A stretch of 64,000 nucleotides of DNA from Candidatus Kaiserbacteria bacterium (GCA_016217905.1 JACRFL010000001.1:18287-82286), one strand, 5' to 3'; positions 12,097 to 38,800 are shown, counted from the stretch's first letter. The notes: generated by a model from the sequence alone, not told the origin. Translations and numbers: made by a program.

Positions 12097-13902
12097 ATGA
12101 CTGTTAGCGAGGTACGCAAGCGCTATATCGATTTTTTTGCAGCGAGGGGGCACGCAGTGATTCCCTCCGCGCCGATCGTGCCCGAGAACGACCCGACGAC
12201 ACTCTTTACCTCGAGCGGGATGCAGCCCCTCGTGCCGTACCTGTTGGGCCAGCCACACCCCGAAGGGAACCGCCTCGTCGATTCGCAACTCTCGTTCCGT
12301 GCGGGGGACATCGAAGAAGTGGGAGACAACCGTCACACGACGTTTTTCGAGATGCTCGGCAACTGGTCGCTCGGAGATTATTTTAAGAAAGAGCAGTTGC
12401 CGTGGATCTACGAATTTTTAACTGAAGAACTGAATCTCCCGAAGGAGCGGCTCTGGATGACCTGTTTTGTAGGAGATGAAGCGCTCGGCTTGCCGAAGGA
12501 CACCGAGTCGGCAGACATATGGAAAAAAATCGGAATGCCCGAAGATCGTGTACTTTTTTATGACGCGAAGAAAAATTGGTGGAGCCGCTCCGGCACGCCG
12601 GAGAAGATGCCGACAGGAGAACCGGGCGGCCCCGATTCTGAAATCTTTTTTGATTTTCAAACCCCGCACGACAAGGCATTTGGCGAAACGTGCCACCCCA
12701 ACTGCGACTGCGGGCGCTTCATGGAGATCGGCAATTCGGTTTTTATGGAATACATCAAGAATGCCGACGGCACCTTCGGCAAGCTTCCGAAACAGAACGT
12801 CGACTTCGGCGGCGGGCTCGAACGTCTAGCTGCAGCGACCCGAGATGACGCCGATGTGTTCCTCATCGATGCATTTGACGCTGCGCGCACCATACTCGAA
12901 AAACGCTCCGGCCATCACTATGGGGATGTAGGACGTACGACGTCCTACATGAGATCGTTCCGCATCATCCTTGATCACGTGCGCGCGGCAACTTTCATGA
13001 TCGCCTTCGGAATCCGTCCCTCGAACACCGAGCAGGGCTACGTGCTGCGCCGCCTCATTCGCCGCTCGATTCGCGAAGCTGACAAGCTCGGGATCGTCGA
13101 TGCGGTGCTTGCCGAAGTCGCCGAAGGGTTCGGCGCTGCATACGCCGATGCCTATCCGTTCGTTCAGGCGACGGTACAGACCATTCGCGGGGAGCTCGAG
13201 AAGGAGGAGGCGCAATTCAGGAAGACGCTCGTGCACGGCCTGCGCGAGCTCGAAAAGATGAGAGGCGCCGTCGATGCCTTCATGCTCTTCACCACCTATG
13301 GATTCCCGGTAGAACTCACTGAAGAAATTGCGAAAGAGCGCGGTATTGCGCTCGATATGGCCGCGGTGAAGGCAAAGATAGAAGTGCATCAAGCGCTCTC
13401 GAGAGCGGGCGCGGTGCAGAAATTTGCGGGTGGGCTTGCTGACCACGCCGAGCAGACGGTGCGCTACCACACCGCGCACCACCTGCTTCTTAAGGCGCTG
13501 CAGATAGTGCTCGGTCCCGACGTGCACCAGCGCGGGAGCAATATCACGAGCGGACGACTCCGCATCGACTTCAGTTGGGGAGCCAAGATGACGCCGGAAC
13601 AAATCGCAGCGGTTGAAAAAATCGTGAACGAGAAGATTGCGGAACAGATTCCCGTCATTCGTACGGATATGAAAAGAGATGAGGCGAAGAAGCTCGGCGC
13701 CGAGCGCGAATTCGGCGCGTCCTACCCCGACACCGTGTCGGTATATTCGATCGGCCCGCTCGAGGGCGCGTTTTCGATAGAATTCTGCGGCGGGCCGCAT
13801 GTCGAGAACACGGGCGAGCTCGGAGCAGGGAAGCGCTTCAAGATCGTAAAGGAAGAAACGTCGTCTGCCGGCGTTCGCCGCATCAAGGCGGTGCTAGAAT
13901 GA
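12097..13902 (+). CDS. alaS: alanyl-tRNA synthetase, short form (catalytic, tRNA-recognition and editing domains; no C-Ala domain)
   Basis: Start at the in-frame ATG 12097; ORF 11875 would overlap pepO. FTSSGMQP, GNWSLGDYFK, HTAHHLL and CGGPHV editing-domain motifs. Contains an in-frame 25-nt palindrome at 12926-12950. Confidence 0.85.
   Translation: MTVSEVRKRYIDFFAARGHAVIPSAPIVPENDPTTLFTSSGMQPLVPYLLGQPHPEGNRLVDSQLSFRAGDIEEVGDNRHTTFFEMLGNWSLGDYFKKEQLPWIYEFLTEELNLPKERLWMTCFVGDEALGLPKDTESADIWKKIGMPEDRVLFYDAKKNWWSRSGTPEKMPTGEPGGPDSEIFFDFQTPHDKAFGETCHPNCDCGRFMEIGNSVFMEYIKNADGTFGKLPKQNVDFGGGLERLAAATRDDADVFLIDAFDAARTILEKRSGHHYGDVGRTTSYMRSFRIILDHVRAATFMIAFGIRPSNTEQGYVLRRLIRRSIREADKLGIVDAVLAEVAEGFGAAYADAYPFVQATVQTIRGELEKEEAQFRKTLVHGLRELEKMRGAVDAFMLFTTYGFPVELTEEIAKERGIALDMAAVKAKIEVHQALSRAGAVQKFAGGLADHAEQTVRYHTAHHLLLKALQIVLGPDVHQRGSNITSGRLRIDFSWGAKMTPEQIAAVEKIVNEKIAEQIPVIRTDMKRDEAKKLGAEREFGASYPDTVSVYSIGPLEGAFSIEFCGGPHVENTGELGAGKRFKIVKEETSSAGVRRIKAVLE
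12926..12950. repeat. 25-nt perfect palindrome ATGTAGGACGTACGACGTCCTACAT, copy 1, in-frame inside alaS (encodes VGRTTSYM)
   Basis: Identical to 38343-38367 inside gltX. 11-bp arms around an ACG centre. Confidence 0.9.
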
Positions 13903-13906
13903 ACCG

Positions 13907-14953
13907 ATGAACTTGTTCTCCGGCTTTTTCCGCAAAGGGAAAAAAAGAGAGTCGGTCGTGCTCGTCGACATCGGTGCCGCGTCGGTCGCGGGCGCGTACG
14001 CGCGGTTTACGGAAGGAGAGCTCCCGATTTTGTTGTACACGAGACGGCTCCCTGTCGAGCCGCGCGAGGGAGAACCGCAGGAGCGCGCGATGCTGCGCGC
14101 TCTCAAAATCCTCGGCGATACGCTCATCCGCGAGGGGGCTCCCGCGCTTATGCGTCATACCGGCAGCGGGAGGAGCGATCTCATCCTTGCGTCGATCGAC
14201 GCGCCCTGGCAGAAAACCACAGTACGCACCGAACGCTTCGAGCAGAAAATGCCGTTTCTTTTTACGAAAAGCCTTGCCTCCGAGATAGTGAAAAAGACAA
14301 GCGTTACGGTTCCCCGGAAGATTCTCGCCGACGAGACCGTCATCGGCACCATCCTCAACGGCTATCGGACGAACAGTCCTTACGGAAAGAGGGCGCACCG
14401 GGCAACCCTCATCATCCTCACGTCGCTCATCGATGAGAGCATCGCCGACCACATCGTCTCCGTGCTTCGAAGCGTGTACCACACGAAGCGCATTCTTCCA
14501 ATCGCGGGAAGCTCGCTGCGCTACCAGGCGATGCACGCCGCTTTCCCGCACGAGCGGGACGCGCTCATCATCGACGCGACGGGACCGCAGACATCCCTCG
14601 CGCTTATACGCAGGGGACTTTCGGTCTCCGTCCTCGAGGCGGCGAATACACACGACACCGATTCGTGGACACGGAACGTGATAGACGAGCTTGCCGAGCT
14701 TGCGAAGCGTTATCCGCTGCCGCGGACGATATTCCTGCTCGCCCGCGAACCGGAAATAACCGTTCTGCGCGAGAAACTCGACGCGGCGAACCTGGGCAAA
14801 ATATGGCTCTCCGACACGCCGCCGCACACCGTCTCAGTGCTCGCGAGCCATATCGGCGGACTGGTCCACCAGGCGACGACGGCCCCCGCGGACCTCCCGC
14901 TCCTCCTTATGGCCCTCTTCTACCAACACTCCGCGTTCGGCGAAAAAACGTAA
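13907..14953 (+). CDS. actin-like ATPase fold protein (divergent FtsA/PilM-like)
   Basis: N-terminal VVLVDIGAASVAGAY and later ALIIDATGPQTSLALI resemble the two phosphate-binding motifs of the FtsA/PilM/ParM actin-like fold. Otherwise divergent. Confidence 0.4.
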   Translation: MNLFSGFFRKGKKRESVVLVDIGAASVAGAYARFTEGELPILLYTRRLPVEPREGEPQERAMLRALKILGDTLIREGAPALMRHTGSGRSDLILASIDAPWQKTTVRTERFEQKMPFLFTKSLASEIVKKTSVTVPRKILADETVIGTILNGYRTNSPYGKRAHRATLIILTSLIDESIADHIVSVLRSVYHTKRILPIAGSSLRYQAMHAAFPHERDALIIDATGPQTSLALIRRGLSVSVLEAANTHDTDSWTRNVIDELAELAKRYPLPRTIFLLAREPEITVLREKLDAANLGKIWLSDTPPHTVSVLASHIGGLVHQATTAPADLPLLLMALFYQHSAFGEKT

Positions 14954-15001
14954 TGCACAGAGGCAGCATGACGTTCCCCCCGTAACTGGTATACTGCGTG
15001 C

Positions 15002-16240
15002 ATGCGTACACTTGATGACATCATACCGCCGTCACGGCGTAAGGAGACGGAGCCGTTCGGCCAACTGCCCCCAAATGACGGGCGCGAATCATCGCGCCTC
15101 TCAAGCGACCGTCCTCCACGGTTCCCTTACGTTACTCTCATTACCATCGTATCCGTTATTGCCGTGTCCGTCGGCGCGCTCTTCTACTTCTCGAGCGCGA
15201 AGGTCGAGATCACGCCTCACACCGTCTCCGCGGCGGTACAGGGATCCTTCACGGCGACCAAGAGTTCCGGCGATCTGCCTTTTGAAATCATTACGGCGCA
15301 AAAAATAGCTTCACAGAGCGTCAAAGGAAGCGGGACCAAGACCGTTTCCTCATCCGCTTCCGGGACCATCGTCATCTACAACACGCAGTCCAAGGCCCAG
15401 CAGCTCGTAACCAATACCAGATTCGCGACCACGGCCGGCCTCATTTTCCGGATCCACTCGGCGATAACGATTCCGGGCGGTAGCACTGCGAAGCCCGGCA
15501 GCATAAGGGTAAAGGTCTATGCCGACCAGCCCGGTAGCTTGTACAATGTCGGCCAGACTTCTTTCACGATCCCCGGATTCGCGGGAACCCCGCAGGCGAC
15601 CCAGGTCTATGCGCGCTCGACCAGTGCCATGACCGGCGGAGCTTCCGGAATCATCCCGATCGTAGACGCGCCCGCGCAAGCGCAGGCGCGCAGCGCGCTT
15701 GTCGGCGCGCTCGGTCCGGATCTTGTGGCAAGCATTGGGACGCAGATACCCGAGGGATACACTCTCCTCCCGGGCGCGACGACGACGACGTACCAGGATC
15801 TCGCGCTCGAACCCTCCTCGACGACAGGCATGGTAGAGGTGAAAGAGCAGGGGACCATCACCGCGATCGTTTTCCCGACCGCCGCGCTCGCGAAGGCGGT
15901 CGCTTCATCGGTCTCCGGCCTCAACTATCAGGGCGAGCCGCTTACTCTTTCTCTCTCATCCGGGAATTCGCTCATGCTCAAGCCCGGGAGCGATCTCACC
16001 GATACGCAGGCCTCCTCTTTCCCCTTCACGCTTACCGGGACGGCGTCGTTCGTGTACTCGGTCGATCCGACCCGCATCGCTGCGGCCGTGAGCGGAAAAA
16101 CGCGCTCAGCGGCGGAGGTGGCTCTCACGAACTATCCGGAGATCAAACGGGCCGTCATCATCCTTCGTCCGTTCTGGAGACAGACATTCCCCCAGGATCC
16201 CGCCGCGATCTCGGTAACGGTCGATTCGGGCGCATATTGA
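15002..16240 (+). CDS. hypothetical single-pass membrane protein with large Ser/Thr/Gly/Ala-rich extracytoplasmic domain
   Basis: TM helix VTLITIVSVIAVSVGALFYF after a ~40-aa N-terminal segment. Beta-rich, low-complexity C-terminal 350 aa. Confidence 0.45.
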   Translation: MRTLDDIIPPSRRKETEPFGQLPPNDGRESSRLSSDRPPRFPYVTLITIVSVIAVSVGALFYFSSAKVEITPHTVSAAVQGSFTATKSSGDLPFEIITAQKIASQSVKGSGTKTVSSSASGTIVIYNTQSKAQQLVTNTRFATTAGLIFRIHSAITIPGGSTAKPGSIRVKVYADQPGSLYNVGQTSFTIPGFAGTPQATQVYARSTSAMTGGASGIIPIVDAPAQAQARSALVGALGPDLVASIGTQIPEGYTLLPGATTTTYQDLALEPSSTTGMVEVKEQGTITAIVFPTAALAKAVASSVSGLNYQGEPLTLSLSSGNSLMLKPGSDLTDTQASSFPFTLTGTASFVYSVDPTRIAAAVSGKTRSAAEVALTNYPEIKRAVIILRPFWRQTFPQDPAAISVTVDSGAY

Positions 16241-16279
16241 CGTCCTTCTGGACTCCTGCTACATTGACTAGGCATCAGC

Positions 16280-16552
16280 ATGAGTGACGGTGAAAGTATG
16301 ACAACGACGGTGGGAACCGTCGAGGAGGTGTTGCCGAATTCGCTTTTTCGAGTTCGTCTCTCTCCCGCGACGAGTCCGTCCCCCGAAGCGCCTGAAGATG
16401 GCGTCGCGGAGGAAAAAGGCGAGCCGCTCATACTCGCGTACCTTGCAGGCAAGATGCGCCTCCATCGCATCCGGGTCTTGGTCGGCGACCAAGTGGAGAT
16501 GGTGCTCGACCCCTACGGAGGACGGGCCCGGATAGTTCGCCGCTTAACGTAA
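16280..16552 (+). CDS. infA: translation initiation factor IF-1 with ~17-aa low-complexity insertion
   Basis: [16 protein letters not shown]...[33 protein letters not shown] matches the IF-1 S1 fold. An extra segment [20 protein letters not shown] lies between strands. Confidence 0.8.
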
Positions 16553-16574
16553 CCTAACGAAGGACACTTTTACA

Positions 16575-16691
16575 ATGAAAGTTCGCGCGTCGATCAAAGT
16601 ACAGCAGACAGGAGACCAGCTCGTCCGCCGCGGCGGGCGTCTGTATCGTATCAATAAGAAGAATCCCCGCCGTAAAGCGAGACAAGGATAA
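16575..16691 (+). CDS. rpmJ: ribosomal protein L36 (Cys-less variant)
   Basis: Below the 60-aa ORF cutoff. Hand translation gives [38 protein letters not shown]. Position between infA and rpsM is canonical. Confidence 0.75.
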
Positions 16692-16715
16692 CTTGTCATA
16701 TCTAAATATTTAAAC

Positions 16716-17096
16716 ATGCGTATTGCCGGCGTTACCATCTCCGATACCAAGCAGCTCGCGTACTCGCTGCCGCTCATCTTCGGCATCGGTTCCGCGCGCG
16801 CCCGACACATCCTCAAGACGGTCGGCGTCGCGCCCACCAAGAAAGGCGCCGAGCTCACGAGCGACGAGGAACAGAAGATCCGCTCGCTCGCGGAAGCCTT
16901 CACTATCGAGGGAGAGCTTCGGCGCGAGATCGGGCAGAACATCAAGCGCCTGAAGGATATCCGCTCGGTGCGCGGCGACCGTCACAGCCGCGGTCTTCCG
17001 GTGCGCGGCCAGCGCACCAAGACGAATTCAAGGACTCGCCGCGGCAACGTCCGTAAGACGATGACCTCCGGTCGCCGGACGCTCGAGAAAACATAA
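16716..17096 (+). CDS. rpsM: ribosomal protein S13
   Basis: MRIAGVTI...GIGSARA...RGLPVRGQRTKTNSRTRRG. Confidence 0.95.
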   Translation: MRIAGVTISDTKQLAYSLPLIFGIGSARARHILKTVGVAPTKKGAELTSDEEQKIRSLAEAFTIEGELRREIGQNIKRLKDIRSVRGDRHSRGLPVRGQRTKTNSRTRRGNVRKTMTSGRRTLEKT

Positions 17097-17102
17097 TTAC
17101 CT

Positions 17103-17537
17103 ATGGGGAAAAAACGCATCATCAAGAAGAGCGGGAAAGGTCTCGACGCGGGACGGAAAGAACGCGCCCTCGGCAAGGCCACGAAGCGCCGTCTCGAGAA
17201 GGGCGTCCTCCACATCGAGGCGACGTTCAACAACACGAAGGCGACCCTCACTGACGAGAAGGGGAACGCGGTCGTCTCTTCCTCGGCCGGCGCGCTCGGT
17301 TTCTCCGGCGCGAGGAAGTCCACGCCCTATGCGGCGGCGAAGGTCGGCGAATTCATCGGCGAGAAAGGTGCCATGATCGGGCTCAAGGAGGCGTCGGTCG
17401 TCATTCGCGGCGTTGGCGCAGGCCGCGAGTCGGTCTTGCGTGCGTTCTCGGGGAAGGGCATCCAGATTCGTTCCATCAAGGACATGACGCCCGTGCCGCA
17501 CAACGGCCCGCGCCCGCCGCGCGCCCGCCGCATATAA
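17103..17537 (+). CDS. rpsK: ribosomal protein S11
   Basis: HIEATFNNTKATLTDEKGNAV...PHNGPRPPRARRI. Confidence 0.95.
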   Translation: MGKKRIIKKSGKGLDAGRKERALGKATKRRLEKGVLHIEATFNNTKATLTDEKGNAVVSSSAGALGFSGARKSTPYAAAKVGEFIGEKGAMIGLKEASVVIRGVGAGRESVLRAFSGKGIQIRSIKDMTPVPHNGPRPPRARRI

Positions 17538-17540
17538 CCT

Positions 17541-18164
17541 ATGAAAACCGGCCCGCGATACAAAACAGCAAAACGCCTCGGCGCATCCGTCTTCGAAAAA
17601 GCGCAGACGCAGAAGTTCGCGTTGTCCGCCGACCGTTCCGCGAAAAACAAACGCCGCAGCTCCGGCCGGCAGAGCGAGTACGGGAAGCAGATGCTCGAGA
17701 AGCAGAAAGTCCGCGTCACCTACGGCCTTCCGGAACGGCAGTTCCGCAATTACGTGAACAAGGCGCTCGGGGCGCATAGCGCGCAGCCGTCTGACCGCCT
17801 CCACGAGCTTCTCGAGCTCCGGCTCGACAACGTCGTATGGCGCCTCGGCCTCGCTCCGACGCGACGCGGCGCGCGCCAGATGGTCGCGCACGGTCATGTC
17901 ACGGTCGGCGGAAAGAGGAGCCGCGTTCCGTCGCAGGCGCTTTCGGTGGGCGACAGAATCGCAGTGCGCGAGGGCTCGAAGGGGCACGGCGTTCTCACCG
18001 GTTTCAACGAGCGATTCCTCGAACGACCGCTCCCTTCGTGGCTTTCGTGGAACCCGAAAACGATGGAAGGTTCGATTGTCGCCGTGCCGACCGCCGTGCC
18101 GACCGCCGCGTCGAGCGATGCGGCGGGCGACCTGGTCGCCGTGCTCTCGTTCTACACGAGATAG
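17541..18164 (+). CDS. rpsD: ribosomal protein S4
   Basis: RLDNVVWRLGLAPTRRGARQMVAHGHVTVGG. The C-terminus carries a 12-nt tandem duplication (AVPTAVPTAA). Confidence 0.9.
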   Translation: MKTGPRYKTAKRLGASVFEKAQTQKFALSADRSAKNKRRSSGRQSEYGKQMLEKQKVRVTYGLPERQFRNYVNKALGAHSAQPSDRLHELLELRLDNVVWRLGLAPTRRGARQMVAHGHVTVGGKRSRVPSQALSVGDRIAVREGSKGHGVLTGFNERFLERPLPSWLSWNPKTMEGSIVAVPTAVPTAASSDAAGDLVAVLSFYTR

Positions 18165-18200
18165 TTTTTACATTAATCAACCGGTAATTACGATTGCGTT

Positions 18201-19145
18201 ATGGAATACCACATCACACTTCCGAGCAAGCCTCGCATTGTCTCCGAAGAGGGCACGCAGGGCATTTATGAGATCGACTCGCTCTATCCGGGTTACGGTC
18301 ACACGCTCGGGAACAGCCTTCGCCGCATTATCCTTTCCTCGCTCCCCGGGGCGGCGGTGACACAGGTGAAGATCGAGGGCGTTCCGCACGAATTCGCTTC
18401 CATCGACGGCGCGCGCGAGACGGTCATGGAGATCCTCCTTAACCTCAAGCGCGTTCATTTCGTCCTCCATGGCGACGAGCCGCAGACCATTTCGCTTGCC
18501 GCCAAAGGGCCGGGCGCTGTTGCCGCAAAAGATTTCAAGCTTCCGAGCCAGGTCGAGATAAAGAATCCAGAACAGCACATATGCGACCTCTCGGGGAAGG
18601 TGACGCTCGAGCTTGAGGCGACTATAGAGCGCGGCCTCGGCTACGTCTCACGCGAGGTGCTCACCAAAGAAAAAGTCGACATCGGCACCATCGCGCTCGA
18701 CGCGACCTTCACGCCGATTCGTCGCGTGAACTATGAAGTGGAGAATATGCGTGTCGGCGACCGCACCGACTTCAACCGACTCCGCATTCTTATCGAGACC
18801 AACGGGACGATCGCGCCGCGGGAGGCGCTTGAGCGCTCCATCGAGACGATGGTTCACCAGCTGCGCGCGGTCATCGGCTTCCAGGAGGCCGAAACGGCCG
18901 GAGAGGTCCTCGCCACGTCAAAGGCCGCCGGAGGCGCCTCCGACGCGGCCAAGGTGAGGATCGCCGATCTCGGTCTCTCCGCCCGCGTCGCCTCGGCGCT
19001 CGAGAACGCGGGCATCAAGAGCGCAGCCGGTCTCGCGAGAAAGGCCGCGAGCGCGCTGAAGGAGCTCGACGGCATCGGCGAAAAGGCGATCGAAGAGATC
19101 TCCGAAGCGCTCGCCGGACACGGCCTCACGCTCAAAAGCGAGTAA
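18201..19145 (+). CDS. rpoA: DNA-directed RNA polymerase subunit alpha
   Basis: [24 protein letters not shown]. Alpha-CTD HhH [18 protein letters not shown]. Confidence 0.95.
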   Translation: [314 protein letters not shown]

Positions 19146-19150
19146 CCGCC

Positions 19151-19504
19151 ATGGCGTTCACCAAAAAAGCCCGAACATTCGGTCGTCCGAGCAATCAACG
19201 GAGAGCGCTCCTGCGCTCCCTGGCGCGTTCTCTCGTCCTTGAAGAACGCATCTCGACCACCGAAGCGAAGGCGAAGGCTCTCCGTCCGTTCGTGGAACGG
19301 CTGGTGACTTATGCGAAGACGAACACGCTCGCGAGCCGTCGGCTCGCGAAGGCCCGTCTCGGCTCCGACGAGGCGGTGAAGAAGCTCTTTGGCACCATCG
19401 GCCCCCGCTACGCTTCGCGCACCGGCGGCTACACGCGCGTGGTCAAGCGCGCGAAGCGCGGGAGCAACGACGCTCGCACGCTTGCGTATATCGCTTTTGT
19501 TTAG
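19151..19504 (+). CDS. rplQ: ribosomal protein L17
   Basis: RKLGRPSNQRRALLRSL...GGYTRVVK. Confidence 0.95.
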   Translation: MAFTKKARTFGRPSNQRRALLRSLARSLVLEERISTTEAKAKALRPFVERLVTYAKTNTLASRRLAKARLGSDEAVKKLFGTIGPRYASRTGGYTRVVKRAKRGSNDARTLAYIAFV

Positions 19505-19519
19505 TATTCATATCTCATT

Positions 19520-19891
19520 ATGACCAGTAACACGAAGCCCTCTCCGACAATTTATACTATCGACGCGACGGACCGTACCCTCGGCCGCGTGGCGAGCGAG
19601 GCCGCGAGCGCGCTTCTTGGCAAAAAATCAGTCCACTTCGCCAAGAATCAGGCGCTGCCGGTTACGGTCGTCATCGAAAATGCGAGCAAGCTTCATCTGC
19701 CTGCTCGTCGCACGAAGGGCAAGGTCTACACGCGTTACACCGGATATCCCGGCGGATTTCGCAAGACGAGTATGGAAGAAATGATTACGAAAAAGGGCAT
19801 CGCCGAGGTCGTTAAGAAAACGGTCGATGGTATGATCCCGCGCAACAAGCTGCGCAAACCACGCATGAAAAATCTCATTGTGAATGCATAA
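19520..19891 (+). CDS. rplM: ribosomal protein L13
   Basis: TYTIDATDRTLGRVASEAASALLGK...GYPGG. Confidence 0.9.
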   Translation: MTSNTKPSPTIYTIDATDRTLGRVASEAASALLGKKSVHFAKNQALPVTVVIENASKLHLPARRTKGKVYTRYTGYPGGFRKTSMEEMITKKGIAEVVKKTVDGMIPRNKLRKPRMKNLIVNA

Positions 19892-20288: not shown

Positions 20289-20316
20289 ATTTGTTGTATT
20301 GTTCCGTCTGGATATG

Positions 20317-20337
20317 GTCTCCCGCAAGGAGACTTTT
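20317..20337 (+). terminator. rho-independent terminator (GTCTCC-CGCAA-GGAGAC plus TTTT) after rpsI
   Basis: Hairpin and U-tract read from the sequence 29 nt after the rpsI stop. Confidence 0.65.
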
Positions 20338-20359
20338 CAGTTCACCGCGAGGAGGACAC

Positions 20360-20677: not shown

Positions 20678-20710
20678 GATTCTTGCCCCACGTCCCTACC
20701 TTCTTTTAAG

Positions 20711-20736: not shown

Positions 20737-20768
20737 ACTCCGCCCAACATTTCAGGCATAGTGGAGGG

Positions 20769-30401: not shown

Positions 30402-30405
30402 TCCG

Positions 30406-31830
30406 ATGAAGATCATTTCGAAACAAGGAACTCTCGAGAACGCCCCGAAGGAGTGTGTCCGCATCAGCTTTACCGAAAAACCCAAAGAGACGAAGCGTCT
30501 CGTGAGGGAACGGAGCGCAGAAACGCTCGAGCTTGGCGTGGGGAAATTTGCAGAATTGAACCGACGAAAGTTTATGATCCTCTGTCGCTCAATAATCCAA
30601 GCTGCGAAGGCGAACAAATGCAAGAAAATCGCGCTCCAGTTCAACCATACTCCCGGGTTGTTCAGGAACCTTAAGGGGAGCACGCGCGAAGAGCTCGCTC
30701 AGCTCACGGCGGAAAATTTCGAGATGGCGAACTTCGATTTCACTATGTTCAAAACGAAGCCGAAAGAAGGTTTCGATGCCGTTGAAGAAATATATGTATA
30801 CGGGAAATCTTCGCCCTCAATTGAAAAAGCCGTGCAGAAAGGTCAGGAGATCGGTCGAGCGGTGAACGCGTGTCGCACGCTCGCGAATACGCCCGGAGGC
30901 GACATGACGCCGACCGTGCTCGCGAGGGCCGCGAAAGACGCGATGAAAGGCCTGCCGGTTAAGGTGACCACGCTTGGCGCCAAAGATATGAAGAAACTCG
31001 GTATGGGCGCGCTCCTGGGTGTCGCGAAGGGTTCGACCGAGGCGCCGACCTTCACTGTTCTCGAATACAAGGGCGGCAAAAGCGCTCCCATCGTGCTCGC
31101 GGGGAAGGGGGTCACCTTTGACAGCGGCGGGTTGAATTTGAAGCCCTCGAACAGCATTTATGAAATGCATATGGATATGTCGGGGGCGGCGGCGGTCATC
31201 CACGCCGTCGCGCTTGCCGCGCGCTTGAAACTCAAGCAATCGGTCGTTGGCCTCATTCCCGCAGTCGAAAATATGCCCGGCAATAATGCGGTTCGACCCG
31301 GCGATATCCTGAAATCTCTCTCCGGGAAGACAATCGAGGTGCTCGATACCGATGCAGAGGGCCGGCTCATCCTCGCGGACGCGCTCACGTACGCAAAACG
31401 CTTCAAGCCCTCGGTCGTCATCGATGTCGCGACGCTGACCGGTGCGGCGATCTCTGCGCTCGGTCTCCACGCGAGCGCCGTTCTCACGCGCGATGACGTG
31501 CTCGCCGAAAAAATCTCAGAGAGCGGAGAAGCGTCCGGCGATTATGTCTGGCGACTGCCGCTCTGGGACGAATACGAGGAACGGGTGAAAGGCACCTTTG
31601 CCGACTTGAAGAACGTGCCGGGCGGGAGCACAAGTCGCTATGGAGGTACGATTGACGGGGGAATGTTCCTCTGGCAATTTGCCAAGGAGCTCGACTGCCC
31701 GTGGGCGCATCTCGACATAGCTCCAAGAATGACCGCTGCTAAAGGGGATGAACTTGCCGAGGGAGCGGCCGGAGAGCCGGTGCGGCTGTTGATACACTTT
31801 ATAGAACATGCCCTTTACCATAAAAACTGA
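30406..31830 (+). CDS. pepA: leucyl aminopeptidase (M17 family)
   Basis: NTDAEGRLILADAL. VIDVATLTGA. An alternative ATG at 30391 overlaps the aspS stop. Confidence 0.85.
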   Translation: MKIISKQGTLENAPKECVRISFTEKPKETKRLVRERSAETLELGVGKFAELNRRKFMILCRSIIQAAKANKCKKIALQFNHTPGLFRNLKGSTREELAQLTAENFEMANFDFTMFKTKPKEGFDAVEEIYVYGKSSPSIEKAVQKGQEIGRAVNACRTLANTPGGDMTPTVLARAAKDAMKGLPVKVTTLGAKDMKKLGMGALLGVAKGSTEAPTFTVLEYKGGKSAPIVLAGKGVTFDSGGLNLKPSNSIYEMHMDMSGAAAVIHAVALAARLKLKQSVVGLIPAVENMPGNNAVRPGDILKSLSGKTIEVLDTDAEGRLILADALTYAKRFKPSVVIDVATLTGAAISALGLHASAVLTRDDVLAEKISESGEASGDYVWRLPLWDEYEERVKGTFADLKNVPGGSTSRYGGTIDGGMFLWQFAKELDCPWAHLDIAPRMTAAKGDELAEGAAGEPVRLLIHFIEHALYHKN

Positions 31831-32530
31831 TTCGTACGAAGGACCATTTGAGATATTGCTCGACCTCATCGAGGCACGCAAGCTCTTGGTGAACGATCTC
31901 GCGCTCTCGAGCATCACCGAAGACTTTATCGCGCATGTGCGCTCGCAGGAGACATTCCCGGTCGAAGAGACCGCGAGCTTCATTCAGATCGCGGCGACGC
32001 TCCTTCTCATCAAATCGAAGTCGCTTATCCCCGATCTCGCGCTCTCCGAAGAGGAGAATGCGGATGTCGAAGACTTGAAGCGTCGTCTCGAGGCCTATGA
32101 GAGGGTGCGCGAGGCCGCGCGCGAGCTCGCGTGCATCTACGGACGCTCCGTCATGGCACGCGCCGGCGAAAGGCCGCTTGAGGTCGTCTTCGCGCCGTCC
32201 CGTGACCTCTCGGCGAATGCGCTTGCAGAAGCTCTCGCACGGGTGCTCGCCGCGCGCGAGACGGTCGAGGAATTGCCGGAGGCGCGCGTGAAGCCGCTCG
32301 TTACCATCGAGGAAATGATGGACCGGCTTGCAAAGCGCGTGCAGAGCGCGATGACCATTTCCTTTAAGGATTTCGCCGGCAGCGCGAAGGAGAAGATCGA
32401 AATCATCGTCTCCTTCCTTGCGCTGCTTGAGCTCGTGCGGCAGGGCGCCGTCGCCGCCGAGCAGTACGAGGCGCACGGCGATATCCGCATCCGCCACGCC
32501 GCCGCTACCGCTGTCCCGCGATACGGTTAA
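31808..32530 (+). CDS. scpA: segregation and condensation protein A
   Basis: YEGPFEILLDLIEARKL start motif. Kleisin-like length. Followed by scpB. Confidence 0.85.
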   Translation: MPFTIKTDSYEGPFEILLDLIEARKLLVNDLALSSITEDFIAHVRSQETFPVEETASFIQIAATLLLIKSKSLIPDLALSEEENADVEDLKRRLEAYERVREAARELACIYGRSVMARAGERPLEVVFAPSRDLSANALAEALARVLAARETVEELPEARVKPLVTIEEMMDRLAKRVQSAMTISFKDFAGSAKEKIEIIVSFLALLELVRQGAVAAEQYEAHGDIRIRHAAATAVPRYG

Positions 32531-32548
32531 CATCCCCAAGAAAGATCG

Positions 32549-33139
32549 TTGCCCGGGAGGGGAAGCGCGATTATACTGACAGGAATGCTTACCCCGCCCG
32601 CCGCCCTCCATGCGCTCCTCTTCGCCTCCGGCGAGTCCCTTCAAAAAAAACGCATCGCAGCCCTTCTTGGGATGAAAGACGCCGAACTCGCGGCCGTCCT
32701 TTGCGCGCTTACTCGCGCGCTCGAAGGAAGCGGGGTCGCACTCATTGAGACGGATACCGAGGCGGAGCTGCGCAGCGTCCCCGAGGCGGCGGATCTCGTG
32801 AAGAAGCTGCGCGAGAGCGAGCTCGCGCGCGATCTTGGCAAAGCCAGTCTCGAGACGCTTGCGGTCGTCGCGTATCGGGCGGGAACGACGCGCGGCGAGA
32901 TCGACTGGGTGCGCGGCGTCAATTCCTCCGCCTCGCTTCGGACGCTTCTTTTGCGCGGCCTCGTCGAGGGGAGGGAAGACCCCCGCGACAAGCGCCGCAC
33001 CCGCTACGGTCTTACGACGGAGGCTCTCGCGCATTTGGGCATCGCCCGCGCGGAGGATCTTCCGCGGGCGAAGGAACTTCGTGCGGGCGCCGACGCGGCA
33101 GTGAAGGAAGAGGAAATGGCGGCGCAAGCCCCGGAGTAG
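32549..33139 (+). CDS. scpB: segregation and condensation protein B
   Basis: LLFASGESL. Tandem winged helices LETLAVVAYRAGTTRGEIDWVRGV. Start may be M at 32585. Confidence 0.85.
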   Translation: MPGRGSAIILTGMLTPPAALHALLFASGESLQKKRIAALLGMKDAELAAVLCALTRALEGSGVALIETDTEAELRSVPEAADLVKKLRESELARDLGKASLETLAVVAYRAGTTRGEIDWVRGVNSSASLRTLLLRGLVEGREDPRDKRRTRYGLTTEALAHLGIARAEDLPRAKELRAGADAAVKEEEMAAQAPE

Positions 33140-33152
33140 CGCGGAATATTCT

Positions 33153-34097
33153 ATGGATTCATACGAACTTCAGAAGCTCGCCCGGCACGCGCGCTCCGCG
33201 CGCGAAGCCGGCATGGCGCTTATCCTCGGCTCCGCTCTCCTCGCGGTCTTCCTTTTCGTTCCGCTCGGCGGCACGAAGGTACCGGCGCCCACCGCCGTCG
33301 CAACACCGACCGGACCGGACACGTTCGCGCAAATCCCGCTTCAGGCGAAAGCGGCTATTGTCTACGATCTCGACACGGGAGAAACGCTCTACGAGAAAAA
33401 CGCCGACGCGCAGCTCCCGCTCGCTTCGCTCACGAAGCTTCTCGCGGTGTACGCCGCGCTCGACGCGCTTCTCCCGGGTACGCCGGTCACCATCCGGGCG
33501 GGAGCGACGCAGCTTGAGGCGCCCCGGGCGTTCTCCGCAGGACAGACGTTTTCGTTTGTCGACCTTGCGCGCCTCACTCTCACCGCATCGTTGAACGACG
33601 GCGCGGCCGCCATCGTCGAAGCGGCCGCGGAGCGAGAAAATCGTTCCGGGACTGACATTCTCGCCGGCGCCGCCGCGGCGCTCTCCCTCTCGCAGACATA
33701 TGCGGTCAACGGGAGCGGTCTTGACGTGAGCACTGCGATCTCGGGAGGATATGGGAGCGCGCGCGACTTCGCCCGTCTCGCGGGAGCGCTCGTCAAGCGG
33801 GCGCCGATGATCGCGGAAGCGACCACGCAGCATTTCACCGAAGCCATTTCGACCGGCGGCACGCGTCTGAAGGTGAAGAACACGGATCCGATGGTCGACA
33901 CCATCCCGCGCCTTCTGCTCTCGAAGACCGGCTACACCGACCTGGCGGGCGGCAATCTCGCTCTCGTATTTGACAGCGGCATCGGGCACCCGATCGCCGT
34001 CGTCGTCCTCGGCTCTTCGGAGAAAGCCCGCTTCACGGACGGAACGGCGCTCGTCGCCGCCACGATCGCCCACTTCGCGGGTGTCGCTTCTCTCTAA
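33153..34097 (+). CDS. dacA: D-alanyl-D-alanine carboxypeptidase (S11, PBP5-like)
   Basis: SLTK (SxxK). SGS-like and KTG(Y)T motifs. N-terminal signal/TM. Confidence 0.75.
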   Translation: MDSYELQKLARHARSAREAGMALILGSALLAVFLFVPLGGTKVPAPTAVATPTGPDTFAQIPLQAKAAIVYDLDTGETLYEKNADAQLPLASLTKLLAVYAALDALLPGTPVTIRAGATQLEAPRAFSAGQTFSFVDLARLTLTASLNDGAAAIVEAAAERENRSGTDILAGAAAALSLSQTYAVNGSGLDVSTAISGGYGSARDFARLAGALVKRAPMIAEATTQHFTEAISTGGTRLKVKNTDPMVDTIPRLLLSKTGYTDLAGGNLALVFDSGIGHPIAVVVLGSSEKARFTDGTALVAATIAHFAGVASL

Positions 34098-34103
34098 ATT
34101 TCC

Positions 34104-35180
34104 ATGCTCGCCTCGAACATCATCAAGATCTTTATCCCGGCGATGGCATCGTTTGCGGCCGGCATTCTTTTCGCCCCCTTTCTCACGCACTACTTATACA
34201 AATATCGCGTCTGGAAGAAGGTGGCGGGGAAGACGGCGCTCGACGGCTCGACGGCCGTCGAGTTCGAAAAGCTCCGCATCGGCGTTCATGCCGGCACCGA
34301 GACGAAAACTCCACGCATGGGCGGCATCCTCATCTGGACGAGCGTCACGTTCGTCACGCTCGGATTCTGGCTCCTCGCGCGCCTCGTGCCCATTCCGCTT
34401 TTCGAAAAACTCGATTTCTTGAGCCGCAGCCAGACGTGGATACCGCTCTTTACCTTACTTGCCGGCGCTTTTATGGGCTTCGTGAACGATGTGCTCGACA
34501 TCCTTCCCTCGGGCGAACGCGGCGTCCGGCTCTCGACTCGCCTCCTCTTCGTCACGCTCGTGTCGCTCTTCATCGGCTGGTGGTTCTACGCGAAGCTCGG
34601 CGTCGATGCGATCGGCATCCCGGGAGACGGCACGTTCACTCTCGGCGCACTCATTGTGCCTCTTTTCGTCCTCGTTACGCTCGGGCTCTACGCGGGCGGC
34701 GTCATCGATGGCGTCGACGGGCTCGCGGGCGGCGTCTTCAGCACCGCGTTCATGGCGTACGCGGGCATCGCGTACGTCCAGAACCAGATCAACCTCGCGG
34801 CCTTCTCCGCGACCTTGGCGGGAGCGATACTCGCGTTTCTTTGGTTCAACATCCCGCCGGCGCGCTTCTGGATGACCGAGACCGGCACGATGGGCCTCAC
34901 GATGACGCTCGCCGTCATCGCGTTTCTGACCGATACGCTCGGAAACGGATTCGGCGTCGCAGCGCTCCCCCTGATCGCATTCCCGCTCGTCATCACCGTT
35001 CTCTCAAACGTCATCCAGATTGCGTCGAAAAAACTGCGCGGGAAGAAGGTATTCAGGATCGCGCCGCTCCATCATCACTTCGAAGCGATCGGCTGGCCCT
35101 CCTACAAGGTCACGATGCGCTATTGGATCATCTCGATCGTCTTCGCCATCGTCGGCATGACCGTCGCGCTCATCAAATGA
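34104..35180 (+). CDS. mraY: phospho-N-acetylmuramoyl-pentapeptide transferase
   Basis: Polytopic membrane protein. PRMGGILI. DDxxD-like motif. C-terminal HHHFE. Confidence 0.9.
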   Translation: MLASNIIKIFIPAMASFAAGILFAPFLTHYLYKYRVWKKVAGKTALDGSTAVEFEKLRIGVHAGTETKTPRMGGILIWTSVTFVTLGFWLLARLVPIPLFEKLDFLSRSQTWIPLFTLLAGAFMGFVNDVLDILPSGERGVRLSTRLLFVTLVSLFIGWWFYAKLGVDAIGIPGDGTFTLGALIVPLFVLVTLGLYAGGVIDGVDGLAGGVFSTAFMAYAGIAYVQNQINLAAFSATLAGAILAFLWFNIPPARFWMTETGTMGLTMTLAVIAFLTDTLGNGFGVAALPLIAFPLVITVLSNVIQIASKKLRGKKVFRIAPLHHHFEAIGWPSYKVTMRYWIISIVFAIVGMTVALIK

Positions 35181-36298
35181 CCATGAAAACCGTCTCCGGC
35201 GACCGCATGTTCTTCATGCTCGCGCTTTCGCTCTCCCTCGCTGGCCTCGCGATTTACTCCTCGGCCGCGCTCGGCCTTCTCGCGCGGGAAACGAGCTCGG
35301 TGTCGCGGGACATCCTGTTCCAGGCAGGGTTCGGACTCGGGTTCGGGCTCCTGGCGCTTTCCGCCGCTCGCGCCGCGCCGCTTGCCTACGTGAAGCGCTT
35401 CGCGCCGCTTGTGTATGTCCTCGCGATCCTTCTCACCGCCCTCGTCTTCGTGCCCGGAATCGGATTCCATTCCGGCGGCGCGACGCGCTGGCTCGATCTC
35501 GGCTTCACGACCGTGCAGCCGGCGGAATTCCTAAAGATCGGCGTAGTACTCGCGCTCGCCCGGTGGCTTGCGCCGCGCGCCCGGAAGCTGGGGAGCGTGA
35601 AGACGGGCCTCATTCCTTTCGTCGCGATTCTTGCGGCGCCTTCCGCCCTTCTGATCGCCCAGCCGAACACGTCGACGACGATCCTTCTTCTTGCCGCGGG
35701 CGCGCTCATGTACTTCGCCGCGGGCGCTCCGTGGCGTGACTTCGGCATTCTTGCGCTCGCCGCCGTCCTCCTCTTCGCCGCCGTCCTCCTCCTGCGACCC
35801 TACACGCTCGAGCGCGCCAAGACGTTCCTCAATCCGTCGGAAAACGCCCTCGGGAGCGGGTATCAGATCCAGCAATCCCTTCTCGCCGTCGGGTCCGGCG
35901 GCCTCCTCGGCAGAGGATTTGGGCAGGGCGTCGAGAAGTTCAATTATCTGCCGGAGCCGTCCGGCGACTCGGTCTTCGCCGTCTTCGCCGAAGAAACCGG
36001 CTTCGTCGGCGCCGCGCTCCTTCTTTCGCTCTTCGTTGCACTCGCGGCTCGCGGCATCGTGATAGCGGGGGACTCGCGCGACCTCTTCGGCGGTCTCGTT
36101 GCCCTCGGCTTCTCGGTCATCATCATCCTGCAGACGTTCATCAACATATGCGCGATGATCGGTATTATCCCGCTTACCGGGCTCCCGCTTCCGTTCATCT
36201 CCCACGGAGGAACCGCTCTCCTCTCTGTCCTCCTCATGTGCGGTTTTATTTTGAACGTCGCCGCCCATCGGCGAACGCAGGCCGGCGCGGTATACTAG
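35177..36298 (+). CDS. ftsW: SEDS-family peptidoglycan glycosyltransferase FtsW
   Basis: Start at the ATG overlapping the mraY stop (ATGA). 10-TM SEDS pattern. EPSGDSVFAV. Position between mraY and murG. Confidence 0.85.
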   Translation: MTMKTVSGDRMFFMLALSLSLAGLAIYSSAALGLLARETSSVSRDILFQAGFGLGFGLLALSAARAAPLAYVKRFAPLVYVLAILLTALVFVPGIGFHSGGATRWLDLGFTTVQPAEFLKIGVVLALARWLAPRARKLGSVKTGLIPFVAILAAPSALLIAQPNTSTTILLLAAGALMYFAAGAPWRDFGILALAAVLLFAAVLLLRPYTLERAKTFLNPSENALGSGYQIQQSLLAVGSGGLLGRGFGQGVEKFNYLPEPSGDSVFAVFAEETGFVGAALLLSLFVALAARGIVIAGDSRDLFGGLVALGFSVIIILQTFINICAMIGIIPLTGLPLPFISHGGTALLSVLLMCGFILNVAAHRRTQAGAVY

Positions 36299-36305
36299 TA
36301 CGCGT

Positions 36306-37448
36306 ATGACCATCGCGTTTACGGGAGGGGGGACCGGGGGACATTTTTATCCGATAATCGCCATCGCCGAAGCGCTCTCTGACCTCGTCCGCGAGGAGCG
36401 CCTTATCGCGCCCTCCCTGTACTATTTCGCGCCGAACGCATTCGATGAAAAAGCGCTGTTTGAGAACGGCATCGCCTTCGTGCGCGTGCCGGCGGGGAAG
36501 ATGCGTCGCTACGCATCGCTCCGGAACGTCATCGATCTGTTTGCCACGCTTTTCGGAACGCTCGTAGCGTCCGAAAAGCTCTTCCGCCTGTACCCGGACG
36601 TCGTGGTGAGCAAGGGTGGGTACGGCAGCGTGCCGACCGTGCTCGCGGCGCGCATACTCCGCATCCCCGTCATCATCCATGAATCGGATGCCAAGCCGGG
36701 TCGCGCGAATCTTCTCGCCGCGAGGTTTGCCGAGAAGATCGCCATTTCGTTCGAGAGTGCCGCGCGCTATTTCCCGGACCGCGTTCAAAGCAAGATCGCC
36801 CGCACGGGCATCCCGATCCGCAAGGCTCTCATGCGCACCGAAGCCGAGGGCGCGACACAGTACCTCGGGCTCGAGCGAGACGTCCCGACCGTGCTCATCC
36901 TCGGCGGCTCGCAGGGCGCCGCGCGGATAAATGATGTCGTGCTCTCCGCTCTTCCGGACCTCGTCTCCTTCGCGAACGTCATCCACCAGACCGGCCCGGC
37001 TCATTTCAAGAATGTGGAGGCGGTCGCACGCGTCGTGCTTGAGAGGAGCCCGCACGCTTCCCGCTATCACCCCATCAACTACCTTTCCGAAATAGCCCTT
37101 CAGAGAGCGGCCGGTGCGGCGAACATCGTCGTTTCGCGCGCAGGCGCGAACTCCATCGCCGAAATCGGCCTCTGGAAGAAACCGGCGATTATCATCCCCA
37201 TTCCCGAAGCGATAAGCCACGATCAGCGCACCAACGCCTACGCCTACGCCCGCACGGGGGCGGCGATCGTCATTGAGGAAGAGAATCTTACTCCGCATCT
37301 TCTCGCCTCCGAGACCAGGCGCATCATCGACGATCTGGAGCTCGGGAAACGCATGGCGGCGGGAGCCGCGGGCTTCACCGACCCGGACGCCGCGCGCATA
37401 CTCGCCCGCCAAGTGCTCGCCATCGCGCTCTCCCACGAATCCGGTTAA
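36306..37448 (+). CDS. murG: UDP-GlcNAc:undecaprenyl-PP-MurNAc-pentapeptide GlcNAc transferase
   Basis: GGGTGGHFYPIIAIAEAL. LILGGSQGA. GT28 family. Confidence 0.9.
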   Translation: MTIAFTGGGTGGHFYPIIAIAEALSDLVREERLIAPSLYYFAPNAFDEKALFENGIAFVRVPAGKMRRYASLRNVIDLFATLFGTLVASEKLFRLYPDVVVSKGGYGSVPTVLAARILRIPVIIHESDAKPGRANLLAARFAEKIAISFESAARYFPDRVQSKIARTGIPIRKALMRTEAEGATQYLGLERDVPTVLILGGSQGAARINDVVLSALPDLVSFANVIHQTGPAHFKNVEAVARVVLERSPHASRYHPINYLSEIALQRAAGAANIVVSRAGANSIAEIGLWKKPAIIIPIPEAISHDQRTNAYAYARTGAAIVIEEENLTPHLLASETRRIIDDLELGKRMAAGAAGFTDPDAARILARQVLAIALSHESG

Positions 37449-37456
37449 AGACTCTC

Positions 37457-38800
37457 ATGACACCCGTCGTCTCTCGTTTCGCCCCCTCGCCGACCGGACT
37501 TCTCCATTCCGGCAATTATCGCACGGCCATATTCGCCTACCTCTTCGCGAAACACAGCGGCGGGAAATTCATCGTACGCATCGAGGACACCGACGCGGCG
37601 CGTTCCAAACCGGAATATGAAAAAAATATTTTCGAAGCGCTCGTATGGCTCGATCTTCCTGCCGACGAAACGTACCGACAGAGCGATCACCGCGCGCGCC
37701 ACCGCGAGCTCCTTGAGAAACTCATCGTTGAAGATGTCGCGTACGTCTCGAAAGAAGCCCCGCAGGCTCCGGGCGACCGCGCGGAGGTCATCCGATTCAG
37801 GAACCAGGGCGGCGTCATCGCATTTACCGATGTCATCCGCGGCTCCATTGCGACCGACGTTACCGATCTCGGCGACTTCATCATCGCCCGGTCTCTCGAC
37901 GAACCGGTCTTCCACTTCGCGGTCGCCGTCGACGACGCGGACGAGGGCGTGACGCACGTCATCCGCGGCGCAGACCACATCTCGAACACCGCGCGCCAGA
38001 TACTCATTCAGCGCGCGCTCAACCTCCCCGAACCACGGTACGCGCACCTGCCGCTCATCCTCGACAAGGCGCACAAGAAGCTGTCGAAACGCACCGGGGC
38101 GAAGGCGCTCACCGAATATCGCGACATCGGCGTGCTGCCCGAAGCGTTCCTCAACTATCTCGCGCTTCTTGGCTGGAATCCGGGTGACGATCGCGAGTAT
38201 CTCTCGCGCGACGAACTCATCAAGGCGTTCGATCTCTCCCGCGTTCAGAAGGGAAGTGCCGTTTTCGACGAAGTGAAGCTCTTCTCGGTAAACCAGCACT
38301 GGATGCGCAAACTCTCGGTTGACGATTTTATCGCACATTTGAATGTAGGACGTACGACGTCCTACATGGATTCCGAGATGCTTCGGAGAGCCGTTCCGCT
38401 CCTCAAGGAACGCGCCCACACCTTCTCCGAGGCGCGGGAGATGCTCTTCGGCGAGCTCTCCTGCCTTTTCGCGAAAACCTCCCTCGACCACACCCTGCTC
38501 CTCGTAAAGGAACTTCCCGAACGCCCGGGAATGACCAAAAGAGCCTTGGAAGCCCTTTCTGCGGCTCTACAAGCCCTTCCCGAAGGCGTTTCCGCCGAGG
38601 CGGTAAAGGAGGCACTTATGCCGCTTGCGGACCTCGAAGAGGCAAAAGGGAAAGGGGGACGGGGAGCACTGCTCTGGCCGCTGCGGTATGCGCTCTCGGG
38701 ACGGGAGCGCTCGCCCGACCCGTTCACGCTCGTCTCCATCCTCGGCCACGCCGAAGCCGTTTCGCGCGTGCAGACAGCCATTGCTATACTGGAGAAATGA
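37457..38800 (+). CDS. gltX: glutamyl-tRNA synthetase (short, 447 aa)
   Basis: RFAPSPTGLLHSGN (HIGH region). KLSKRTGA (KMSKS). Contains an in-frame 25-nt palindrome at 38343-38367. Confidence 0.85.
   Translation: MTPVVSRFAPSPTGLLHSGNYRTAIFAYLFAKHSGGKFIVRIEDTDAARSKPEYEKNIFEALVWLDLPADETYRQSDHRARHRELLEKLIVEDVAYVSKEAPQAPGDRAEVIRFRNQGGVIAFTDVIRGSIATDVTDLGDFIIARSLDEPVFHFAVAVDDADEGVTHVIRGADHISNTARQILIQRALNLPEPRYAHLPLILDKAHKKLSKRTGAKALTEYRDIGVLPEAFLNYLALLGWNPGDDREYLSRDELIKAFDLSRVQKGSAVFDEVKLFSVNQHWMRKLSVDDFIAHLNVGRTTSYMDSEMLRRAVPLLKERAHTFSEAREMLFGELSCLFAKTSLDHTLLLVKELPERPGMTKRALEALSAALQALPEGVSAEAVKEALMPLADLEEAKGKGGRGALLWPLRYALSGRERSPDPFTLVSILGHAEAVSRVQTAIAILEK
38343..38367. repeat. 25-nt perfect palindrome ATGTAGGACGTACGACGTCCTACAT, copy 2, in-frame inside gltX (encodes VGRTTSYM)
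   Basis: Identical to 12926-12950 in alaS. Same reading frame relative to the host gene. Confidence 0.9.

Follow-up and report, generated by a model that had tools for sequence, protein, structure and literature searches.

In-frame palindromes in alaS and gltX of a Candidatus Kaiserbacteria genome as probable REP-type hairpins of a REP/RAYT system

A 64-kb stretch of DNA from a Candidatus Kaiserbacteria genome (JACRFL010000001.1:18287-82286; hereafter the window, with positions counted from its first nucleotide) contains the same 25-nt perfect palindrome in two unrelated genes, alaS and gltX, which encode the alanyl- and glutamyl-tRNA synthetases (AlaRS and GluRS). The question raised by this locus is what kind of sequence comes to lie in frame within two such essential genes. 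We consider it highly probable that the two 25-mers are copies of a hairpin of the repetitive extragenic palindromic (REP) type, belonging to a system of REPs and a REP-associated tyrosine transposase (RAYT) in Kaiserbacteria-like Patescibacteria of the Candidate Phyla Radiation (CPR). The hairpin forms a multicopy family, is associated with a RAYT-like gene in related genomes and co-varies across RAYT lineages; it is polymorphic for presence and absence, restricted to one reading frame within genes and homogeneous within a genome. An earlier note on this DNA had proposed a mobile intragenic palindromic element. The multicopy family, the RAYT link and the existence of relatives without the copies bear this out, and refine the element to a REP-type hairpin.

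Two identical hairpins in tRNA synthetase genes

Exact search of the window for ATGTAGGACGTACGACGTCCTACAT returned two matches (Table 1), and the mean number in 100 dinucleotide-preserving shuffles was 0.00, even with up to 3 mismatches allowed. At the same tolerance the window holds no third copy; the half-site at 8132, with 1 mismatch, is no more than chance would give. The earlier note had described the two copies as lying in the same frame, adding VGRTTSYM to each synthetase and having unrelated flanks. Codon-level reading of the two open reading frames (ORFs) agrees with the first two points. The flanks are indeed unrelated further out, but the G immediately 3′ of both 25-mers is also shared, so that the identity extends over 26 nt.

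Each copy consists of 11-nt arms, forming an 11-bp stem, and the 3-nt loop ACG. Folded as single-stranded DNA (ssDNA), the two copies reach -10.8 and -11.0 kcal/mol (z = -4.9 and -5.1). The tetranucleotide GTAG occupies positions 3-6 of each arm in ATGTAGGACGT... and is located inside the stem. It is the 21-nt core GTAGGACGTNNNACGTCCTAC (GTAG...CTAC), exactly 7 codons long, that keeps the reading frame, and the phase of both copies is xAT GTA GGA CGT ACG ACG TCC TAC ATG.

Table 1. Positions of the two hairpin copies and of their host genes in the window
Feature	Coordinates	21-nt core	Strand	Relation	Product or annotation
alaS	12097..13902		+	host of copy 1	601-aa CPR-type short alanine--tRNA ligase; P0121, 100% identity; PF01411, PF07973
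REP-like hairpin, copy 1	12926..12950	12928-12948		in frame in alaS	VGRTTSYM = AlaRS residues 278-285
gltX	37457..38800		+	host of copy 2	447-aa glutamate--tRNA ligase; P0241, 100% identity; PF00749, PF19269
REP-like hairpin, copy 2 (identical to copy 1)	38343..38367	38345-38365		in frame in gltX	VGRTTSYM = GluRS residues 297-304

The oddity of one palindrome in two genes is all that speaks for an artefact of sequencing or assembly, such as an adaptor or a chimera. The gltX copy is reproduced by an independent Logan assembly of run SRR12113407 (L055, 4584 bp), which is 100% identical to window positions 37155-41738. This support covers the gltX copy only; as to the alaS copy, the equivalent AlaRS site has the same element in three other metagenome-assembled genomes (MAGs; L015, L027 and L032). 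Moreover, orthologous positions are occupied in MAGs from many unrelated studies, the copies are always in frame, and none was found in viral contigs, which also means that there is no sign of a phage vector. That one or both copies are artefactual is thus barely conceivable: they are real biology.

The database AlaRS and GluRS sequences matching the window ORFs (P0121 and P0241) belong to one Candidatus Kaiserbacteria MAG and lie on a contig of 87.5 kb. Its close relatives do not share the copies. The closest AlaRS relatives (L053 and L054, 82-84% identity) are without the element, alignment shows no insert at the alaS site in the three nearest AlaRS sequences (P0122, P0123 and P0125), and the close GluRS relative P0252 (L057, 78% identity) likewise lacks it. 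Among the 120 closest AlaRS homologues (73-84% identity), 86 have no insert here and 13 carry a VGR-type single or doublet, others displaying different palindrome-derived peptides, e.g. QGRTL...QGSTL and DKGLTMS. The VGR state requires about 13 changes on a neighbour-joining (NJ) tree of these homologues, a count that is indicative only, the tree being weakly resolved. GluRS homologues show a similar patchwork of inserts.

At codon level, the window alaS reads TAT GGG GAT GTA GGA CGT ACG ACG TCC TAC ATG AGA TCG where L053 has TAT GCG GAC GCA ACC CAT TCG, a net gain of +18 nt; in gltX, VGRTTSYM stands in place of FVVP of L057, a net gain of +12 nt. The in-frame insertion proposed earlier holds as far as the frame is concerned; the net gain departs from a clean 24 or 27 nt. 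Since these are replacements inside hypervariable loops, exact boundaries and a target duplication are not definable. In the AlphaFold model of AlaRS, the insert falls in the loop (272-283) between helices 258-271 and 284-303, with pLDDT < 50 at residues 278-281, in agreement with the surface-loop location that had been anticipated. Both synthetases are most likely functional with the extra loop. The homologues P0121-P0360, although more than 73% identical, vary in length by tens of residues (575-643 aa for AlaRS, 436-464 aa for GluRS), which suggests that more hairpin-derived insertions are present elsewhere in these genes.

A hairpin family and a RAYT-like gene in related genomes

When GTDB representatives, one genome for each species, were scanned for both arms, perfect and around any centre of 0-12 nt, 52 loci were obtained, nearly all in CPR MAGs; the same arms are present in about 20 Kaiserbacteria-like CPR MAGs. 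All loci except three have a 3-nt loop, and those with the 3-nt loop lie in Patescibacteria-type MAGs or on short contigs binned elsewhere. The fetched loci contain 71 exact copies in total, with 5-15 per related MAG. Nine copies are inverted doublets, in which ATGTCGGGACGT-NNN-ACGTCCTACAT is joined by a CTG or CAG spacer to ATGTAGGACGT-NNN-ACGTCCCGACAT, an arrangement that is REPIN-like.

The three loci with 8- or 11-nt centres (L009, L025 and L039, from Flintibacter and two Bacteroidota MAGs) were rejected as carriers of the same element. At L025:5953-5982 and L039:1438-1467 (Flavobacteriales / Bacteroidia MAGs) the same 11-nt arms enclose the 8-nt palindromic centres TACATGTA and TGCATGCA, giving 30-nt perfect palindromes within longer inverted repeats (ttttcggaaaa / ttttccgaaaa); these are probably an unrelated terminator-like or mobile hairpin. 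A spread across phyla was likewise rejected, the labels 'Saccharibacteria', 'Chloroflexota' and 'Omnitrophota' being attached to contigs with Kaiserbacteria-like genes. Thus, the L027 contig, binned as 'Saccharibacteria', encodes an AlaRS (P0182) that shares 76% identity with the window AlaRS, and L022 (DASVZE010000024.1, 'Chloroflexota') shows the same order of genes around the RAYT-like gene described below as the other loci; L003 (JADGBR010000042.1, 'Omnitrophota') also carries the element. The odd phylum names of L022, L003 and the TPA binchicken 'Saccharibacteria' MAGs probably reflect mis-binning or generic labelling.

Ten of the loci that were retrieved through the palindrome alone hold an ORF of about 225 aa, with one copy about 12 nt before the start, one internal and in frame, and one about 10 nt past the stop. 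The spacing of the three copies, about 195 and about 530 nt, is conserved in several loci. The encoded protein has an invariant HUH motif, NH[YF]HLL, and invariant conserved tyrosines in HY[LVI]HLN. The NCBIfam family REP_Tyr_transpos ('REP-associated tyrosine transposase') matches 36 of 36 homologues, with a best E value of 6e-9, no other family matching them at E <= 0.01; Pfam Y1_Tnp matches weakly. The databases contain 1965 homologues, and several of these bear the name 'REP element-mobilizing transposase RayT' or are assigned to PF01797. An AlphaFold model built from a database homologue (pLDDT 70-88 in the core) was compared with the PDB by Foldseek; the top 27 matches are all IS200/IS605-family TnpA proteins or putative transposases (those named being from IS608, ISDra2, IS200, D. 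radiodurans and S. tokodaii), plus 4er8, which is E. coli RAYT bound to a REP hairpin. The residues encoded by the internal hairpin lie in a loop (39-61) that is modelled with low confidence and separates helix 1 from the HUH strand. Past the Y1 core, the proteins have in common a C-terminal extension of some 80 aa (residues ~145-226, e.g. L002:3285-3530), conserved as WRERDKG...YRWSSY.DYC..NFPSILT, which has no match in Pfam or NCBIfam and is modelled with low confidence.

In most loci the RAYT-like gene is located between the genes for ribosomal protein L25 and a class I fructose-bisphosphate aldolase. This synteny was found in at least 8 genome loci, in 3/3 further loci and in 53/80 metagenome loci, many of the latter being short contigs. 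The fixed position implies that the gene behaves as a fixed chromosomal gene and not as an insertion sequence, and no tnpB lies adjacent to it.

To guard against circularity, the association was also approached from the opposite side, by selecting 80 RAYT loci from metagenomes through protein similarity alone. Seventy of these have at least 80 nt on both sides. With a hairpin defined by a 9-bp stem, a 3-nt loop and at most one mismatch, 57 of the 70 have hairpins at the 5′ flank, internally and at the 3′ flank, and the arms are identical at all three positions in 38. The arms differ by RAYT lineage (GTAGGACGT, TCGGGACGT, GTTGGACGT, GTGGGACTT, GTAGGACCT, GAAGGGTTT and others), the complement matching in each. 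GTAG is replaced by GTTG, GTGG or TCGG in related variants, so that the tag varies within the family at large. In a set of 40 distinct internal hairpins, pairing holds for 97.5% of cells and both sides have changed in 9 of 11 pairs; these hairpins had been pre-selected for pairing, so that the compensatory pattern is descriptive and not a test. Peptide variants in 120 RAYT homologues (VGRTTSY, VGLPKSY, VGPRRSY, VGFPKPY and SGRTTSRH) mirror the variants of the stem. In L058 all three RAYT copies carry a GACTT/AAGTC variant, and in L059 one mismatched stem is the same at all three positions. Such uniformity points to copying from a common sequence, not to independent selection of each hairpin.

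Several observations, in addition to the pre-selection just mentioned, weigh against attributing the window copies to a REP/RAYT system. The RAYT-like proteins score below curated cut-offs (17-19 versus 23 bits in Pfam; at most about 30-35 versus 80 bits in NCBIfam), a sequence-profile search of the PDB with the RAYT alignment gave no match at E <= 1, and the mean pLDDT of the model is only 63. Searching the 64-kb window by tblastn with the RAYT, L25 and aldolase proteins also gave no match, so that for the source genome the link to RAYT is made through homology to relatives only; any RAYT gene of its own must lie outside the window. The perfection of the copies is partly a selection effect, the scan having required perfect arms. 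Furthermore, presence and absence in the loops may reflect loss rather than gain, mobility being inferred, and the net changes of +18 and +12 nt leave no clean boundary. Lastly, two copies per 64 kb is a low number as compared with classical REPs.

Reading frame, loop identity and shared sites of insertion

Host genes were assigned by ORF clustering and Pfam annotation around the exact copies, and about 17 distinct host-gene sites proved to be occupied. They comprise tRNA synthetases (AlaRS, GluRS, PheRS-beta and a ValRS/IleRS-type synthetase), replication and repair proteins (DNA polymerase III delta' and gamma/tau, UvrC), tRNA modification enzymes (TGT and TrmD), methyltransferases (a HemK-like protein and another S-adenosylmethionine-dependent methyltransferase), other enzymes (class V aminotransferase, FAD-linked oxidase, ComF-like phosphoribosyltransferase and Lnt) and RAYT itself. 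With the RAYT locus set aside, about 38 of the 41 exact copies are intragenic, in long ORFs with functions confirmed by Pfam. This is roughly what random placement would give in a genome that is about 90% coding, a general figure rather than one measured here.

The reading frame is fixed. Every confirmed coding copy reads [HNDY]VGRxTSY[IM]; neither the other open phase (CRTxxVLH) nor the phase containing TAG was encountered among the roughly 17 confirmed gene sites. With two phases open, the probability that 17 of 17 share a single one is about 1e-5. A single frame might be expected if VGRTTSYM were an ancestral or convergent functional peptide, its palindromy being incidental. Identity extends to the codons across unrelated genes and across genomes with diverged flanks, however, and non-coding copies lie on both sides of the RAYT gene. 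In addition, peptide variants track the palindromic DNA (R..T, L..K, P..R, F..K with G..P), the closest orthologues are without the element, and in the models it sits in low-confidence loops. A peptide motif is so improbable an origin that it is effectively refuted already. It could also be imagined that the core behaves as a very small intervening sequence and is excised at the level of either mRNA or protein, since its 21 nt are a multiple of three and their removal would keep the frame. An open frame would be needless if the element were spliced, yet the TAG and CRTxxVLH phases are unseen, and the single open phase at all these sites argues that the element is translated. As features of introns or inteins are absent as well, this explanation is very improbable.

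The loop triplet is a signature of the genome rather than of the site. It is ACC/GGT, in either orientation, in 8/8 copies of JBBTWA, ACT/AGT in 8/8 of CAYHGO, ACG/CGT in 5/5 of JAHFMR, TGC/GCA in 4/4 of CAYZWA and CCG/CGG in 9/12 of JBAZRE, and both copies in the window have ACG (2/2). At orthologous sites (AlaRS, polymerase III delta' and the RAYT-internal position) the loops differ between genomes. Some process must keep the copies of one genome alike, and RAYT-mediated copying or exchange is the obvious candidate. The earlier note had offered gene conversion or a restriction-site-like selfish motif as alternatives, neither of which is required. Some homogenizing process is indeed indicated, but conversion between alaS and gltX alone can explain neither more than 70 copies nor the link to RAYT.

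The immediate flanks have a structure of their own. In 30 of 70 copies (43%; L001-L052 plus the window), 3-12 additional complementary bases adjoin the 25-mer, as compared with 1.6% expected. These extensions are specific to the locus, e.g. ccaaccatga..tcatggttgg, and examples are found at L022:1432, L005:3118 and L050:1494. About 80% of copies are preceded by C or A and followed by G or T. Such flanks suggest that the element inserted into palindromes or hairpin tips that were already there, that the target was duplicated in inverted orientation, or that the ends were extended by templated fold-back.

Other hairpins occur in the same genomes. A second family, CAAGGT-NNN-ACCTTG, was observed at L004:3278, L014:807, L026:2853/2871/7136, L044:5119/6677 and L052:5232. 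At L056:7590-7655 an inverted doublet of this family occupies precisely the loop of AlaRS in which the 25-mer is found in the window, and encodes the QG-type insert QGRTLHPNSQGSTL. The presence of a different hairpin in the same loop implies that such loops are shared hot spots for several hairpin families. In L053, the relative without the alaS element, a third hairpin forms an inverted doublet at 2101-2142, consisting of GCAGAAGG-GCA-CCTTCTGC and GCAGAAGG-TGC-CCTTCTGC, inside a tRNA-methyltransferase (MnmA-like) gene (1290-2246). The window itself contains, at 57123-57153, a perfect hairpin with a 14-bp stem and a 3-nt loop, CAGCGGCGCGGCCT-TGT-AGGCCGCGCCGCTG (-22.4 kcal/mol, z = -6.9), within overlapping long ORFs (56978-58702 on the + strand and others); no further copy of it was found in the fetched loci.

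The hairpin might alternatively be a DNA or RNA signal useful to the host and kept by selection, for example as a binding site of a protein of the nucleoid, of replication or of repair, as a structural element of the mRNA or as an uptake sequence recognized by the competence machinery, with the RAYT-like protein as its domesticated reader. The same sites of the same genes are occupied across genomes, RAYT is syntenically fixed like a host gene, and compensatory changes preserve the stems. An enrichment of tRNA synthetase and replication/repair hosts would fit too, echoing what has been reported for other REPs (PMC3733652). On the other hand, neither the alaS nor the gltX copy is present in close relatives, and the AlaRS site requires about 13 changes of state on the weakly resolved NJ tree. 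The same protein loops are also filled by unrelated hairpin families, and within a genome the hairpin loops, and even mismatched stems, are identical, which suggests that a master sequence has been copied. Finally, one copy per 30 kb or so is a density far below that of known uptake sequences, as generally understood. A host signal is accordingly an unlikely explanation.

The REP/RAYT reading may be translated into the following scheme. By analogy with E. coli TnpA-REP and IS200/IS605 TnpA, RAYT would bind the folded hairpin on ssDNA, for instance at the replication fork, nick beside GTAG, and copy, move or exchange hairpins, either singly or as inverted doublets. That REP ssDNA would be bound and cleaved in this way is suggested only by the structural resemblance to 4er8, IS608 and ISDra2. 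With almost no intergenic space available, insertions would fall in genes, and only those would survive that lie in permissive surface loops and are read in the phase without the TAG stop, as the hydrophilic peptide [HNDY]VGRxTSY[IM]. The peptide would then be a tolerated passenger and not a functional module.

A further step, which we put forward tentatively and regard as somewhat less than an even chance, is that this REP/RAYT lineage is specialized for life within coding sequences in ultra-compact CPR genomes. The idea draws on a core of 7 codons with one usable open frame and a loop-compatible peptide, and on signs of continuing activity, namely the genome-wide homogenization of loops and the repeated use of the same protein loops. 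It also draws on the preference for hairpin or palindromic targets that the complementary flanks in 43% of copies would represent, and on the in-frame substrate copy inside the RAYT gene, which may serve autoregulation or act as the master.

Relation to known repeat systems and significance

REPs, REPINs and RAYTs are well known (PMC3116915, PMC3479197, PMC5581495). The system described here resembles them, as represented by E. coli REP/BIME with YafM (PDB 4er8) and by Pseudomonas REPINs, in that the repeat is a short hairpin with GTAG at its 5′ end, occurs as singles and inverted doublets, and is homogeneous within a genome. Moreover, an apparently single-copy, syntenically fixed Y1/HUH gene is flanked by its own repeats, and the repeat is specific to the RAYT lineage. 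It differs in that about 38 of 41 copies are intragenic and translated in a single frame. The repeats thus depart from the extragenic location from which REPs derive their name, although that location is not universal among REPs either (PMC3733652). Further differences are the in-frame copy within the RAYT gene, a perfect 11-bp stem that includes GTAG, only tens of copies per genome, and a protein of about 225 aa that has a C-terminal extension of about 80 aa, scores under the RAYT and Y1_Tnp thresholds and is found in a CPR host.

In-frame REPs have a precedent, so that the case is less singular than the earlier note implied. Di Nocera et al. (2013) described GTAG/CGTC REPs, both singles and dimers, in frame within genes for tRNA synthetases, DNA replication and excision repair (PMC3733652). 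Those intragenic copies are a minority in mostly extragenic families of Proteobacteria, Opitutus and Rickettsia (PMC3733652), whereas here the copies lie within genes as a rule and in one fixed frame, and several hairpin families use the same loops.

A likeness to Rickettsia palindromic elements (RPEs) had also been pointed out, and it holds for the in-frame insertion of a palindrome into essential genes, but not beyond: the present element very probably belongs to a REP/RAYT system and is far shorter. Most RPEs measure about 100-150 bp. The element described here has 21-25 nt, resides in Patescibacteria and is accompanied by a RAYT-like gene, whereas a dedicated transposase is not known for RPEs; the separation is made by length and host. 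RPEs are nevertheless the classic example of in-frame insertion, being palindromic repeats within essential genes of a reduced genome that give rise to tolerated extra peptides (PMC3733652). IS200/IS605 elements and the PATEs, which are MITE-like derivatives of them, share the TnpA fold and a hairpin substrate. Unlike in IS200/IS605, however, the gene is neither multicopy nor mobile, as judged from the L25-aldolase synteny, there is no adjacent tnpB, and a single symmetric hairpin in identical flanking copies takes the place of distinct left and right ends.

In the literature that we searched, no paper links REPs or RAYTs with CPR bacteria. Besides the CPR host, the features that are new here are the near-exclusive intragenic lifestyle in a single frame, the in-frame copy within RAYT in most homologues, the hot-spot loops and the concerted evolution of loop triplets. 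Owing to its perfect hairpin, variable loop, lineage-paired stems and internal substrate copy, the system makes the specificity and mobility of RAYT testable with short oligonucleotides. The element is also a ready marker for mis-binned or mislabelled contigs.

A REP family that survives in surface loops of essential enzymes, in a genome nearly without intergenic DNA, amounts to a natural experiment. It provides a concrete source for the numerous small lineage-specific insertions in CPR housekeeping proteins and, if the lineage is indeed specialized for coding sequences, would go on generating small insertions in essential proteins of the CPR.

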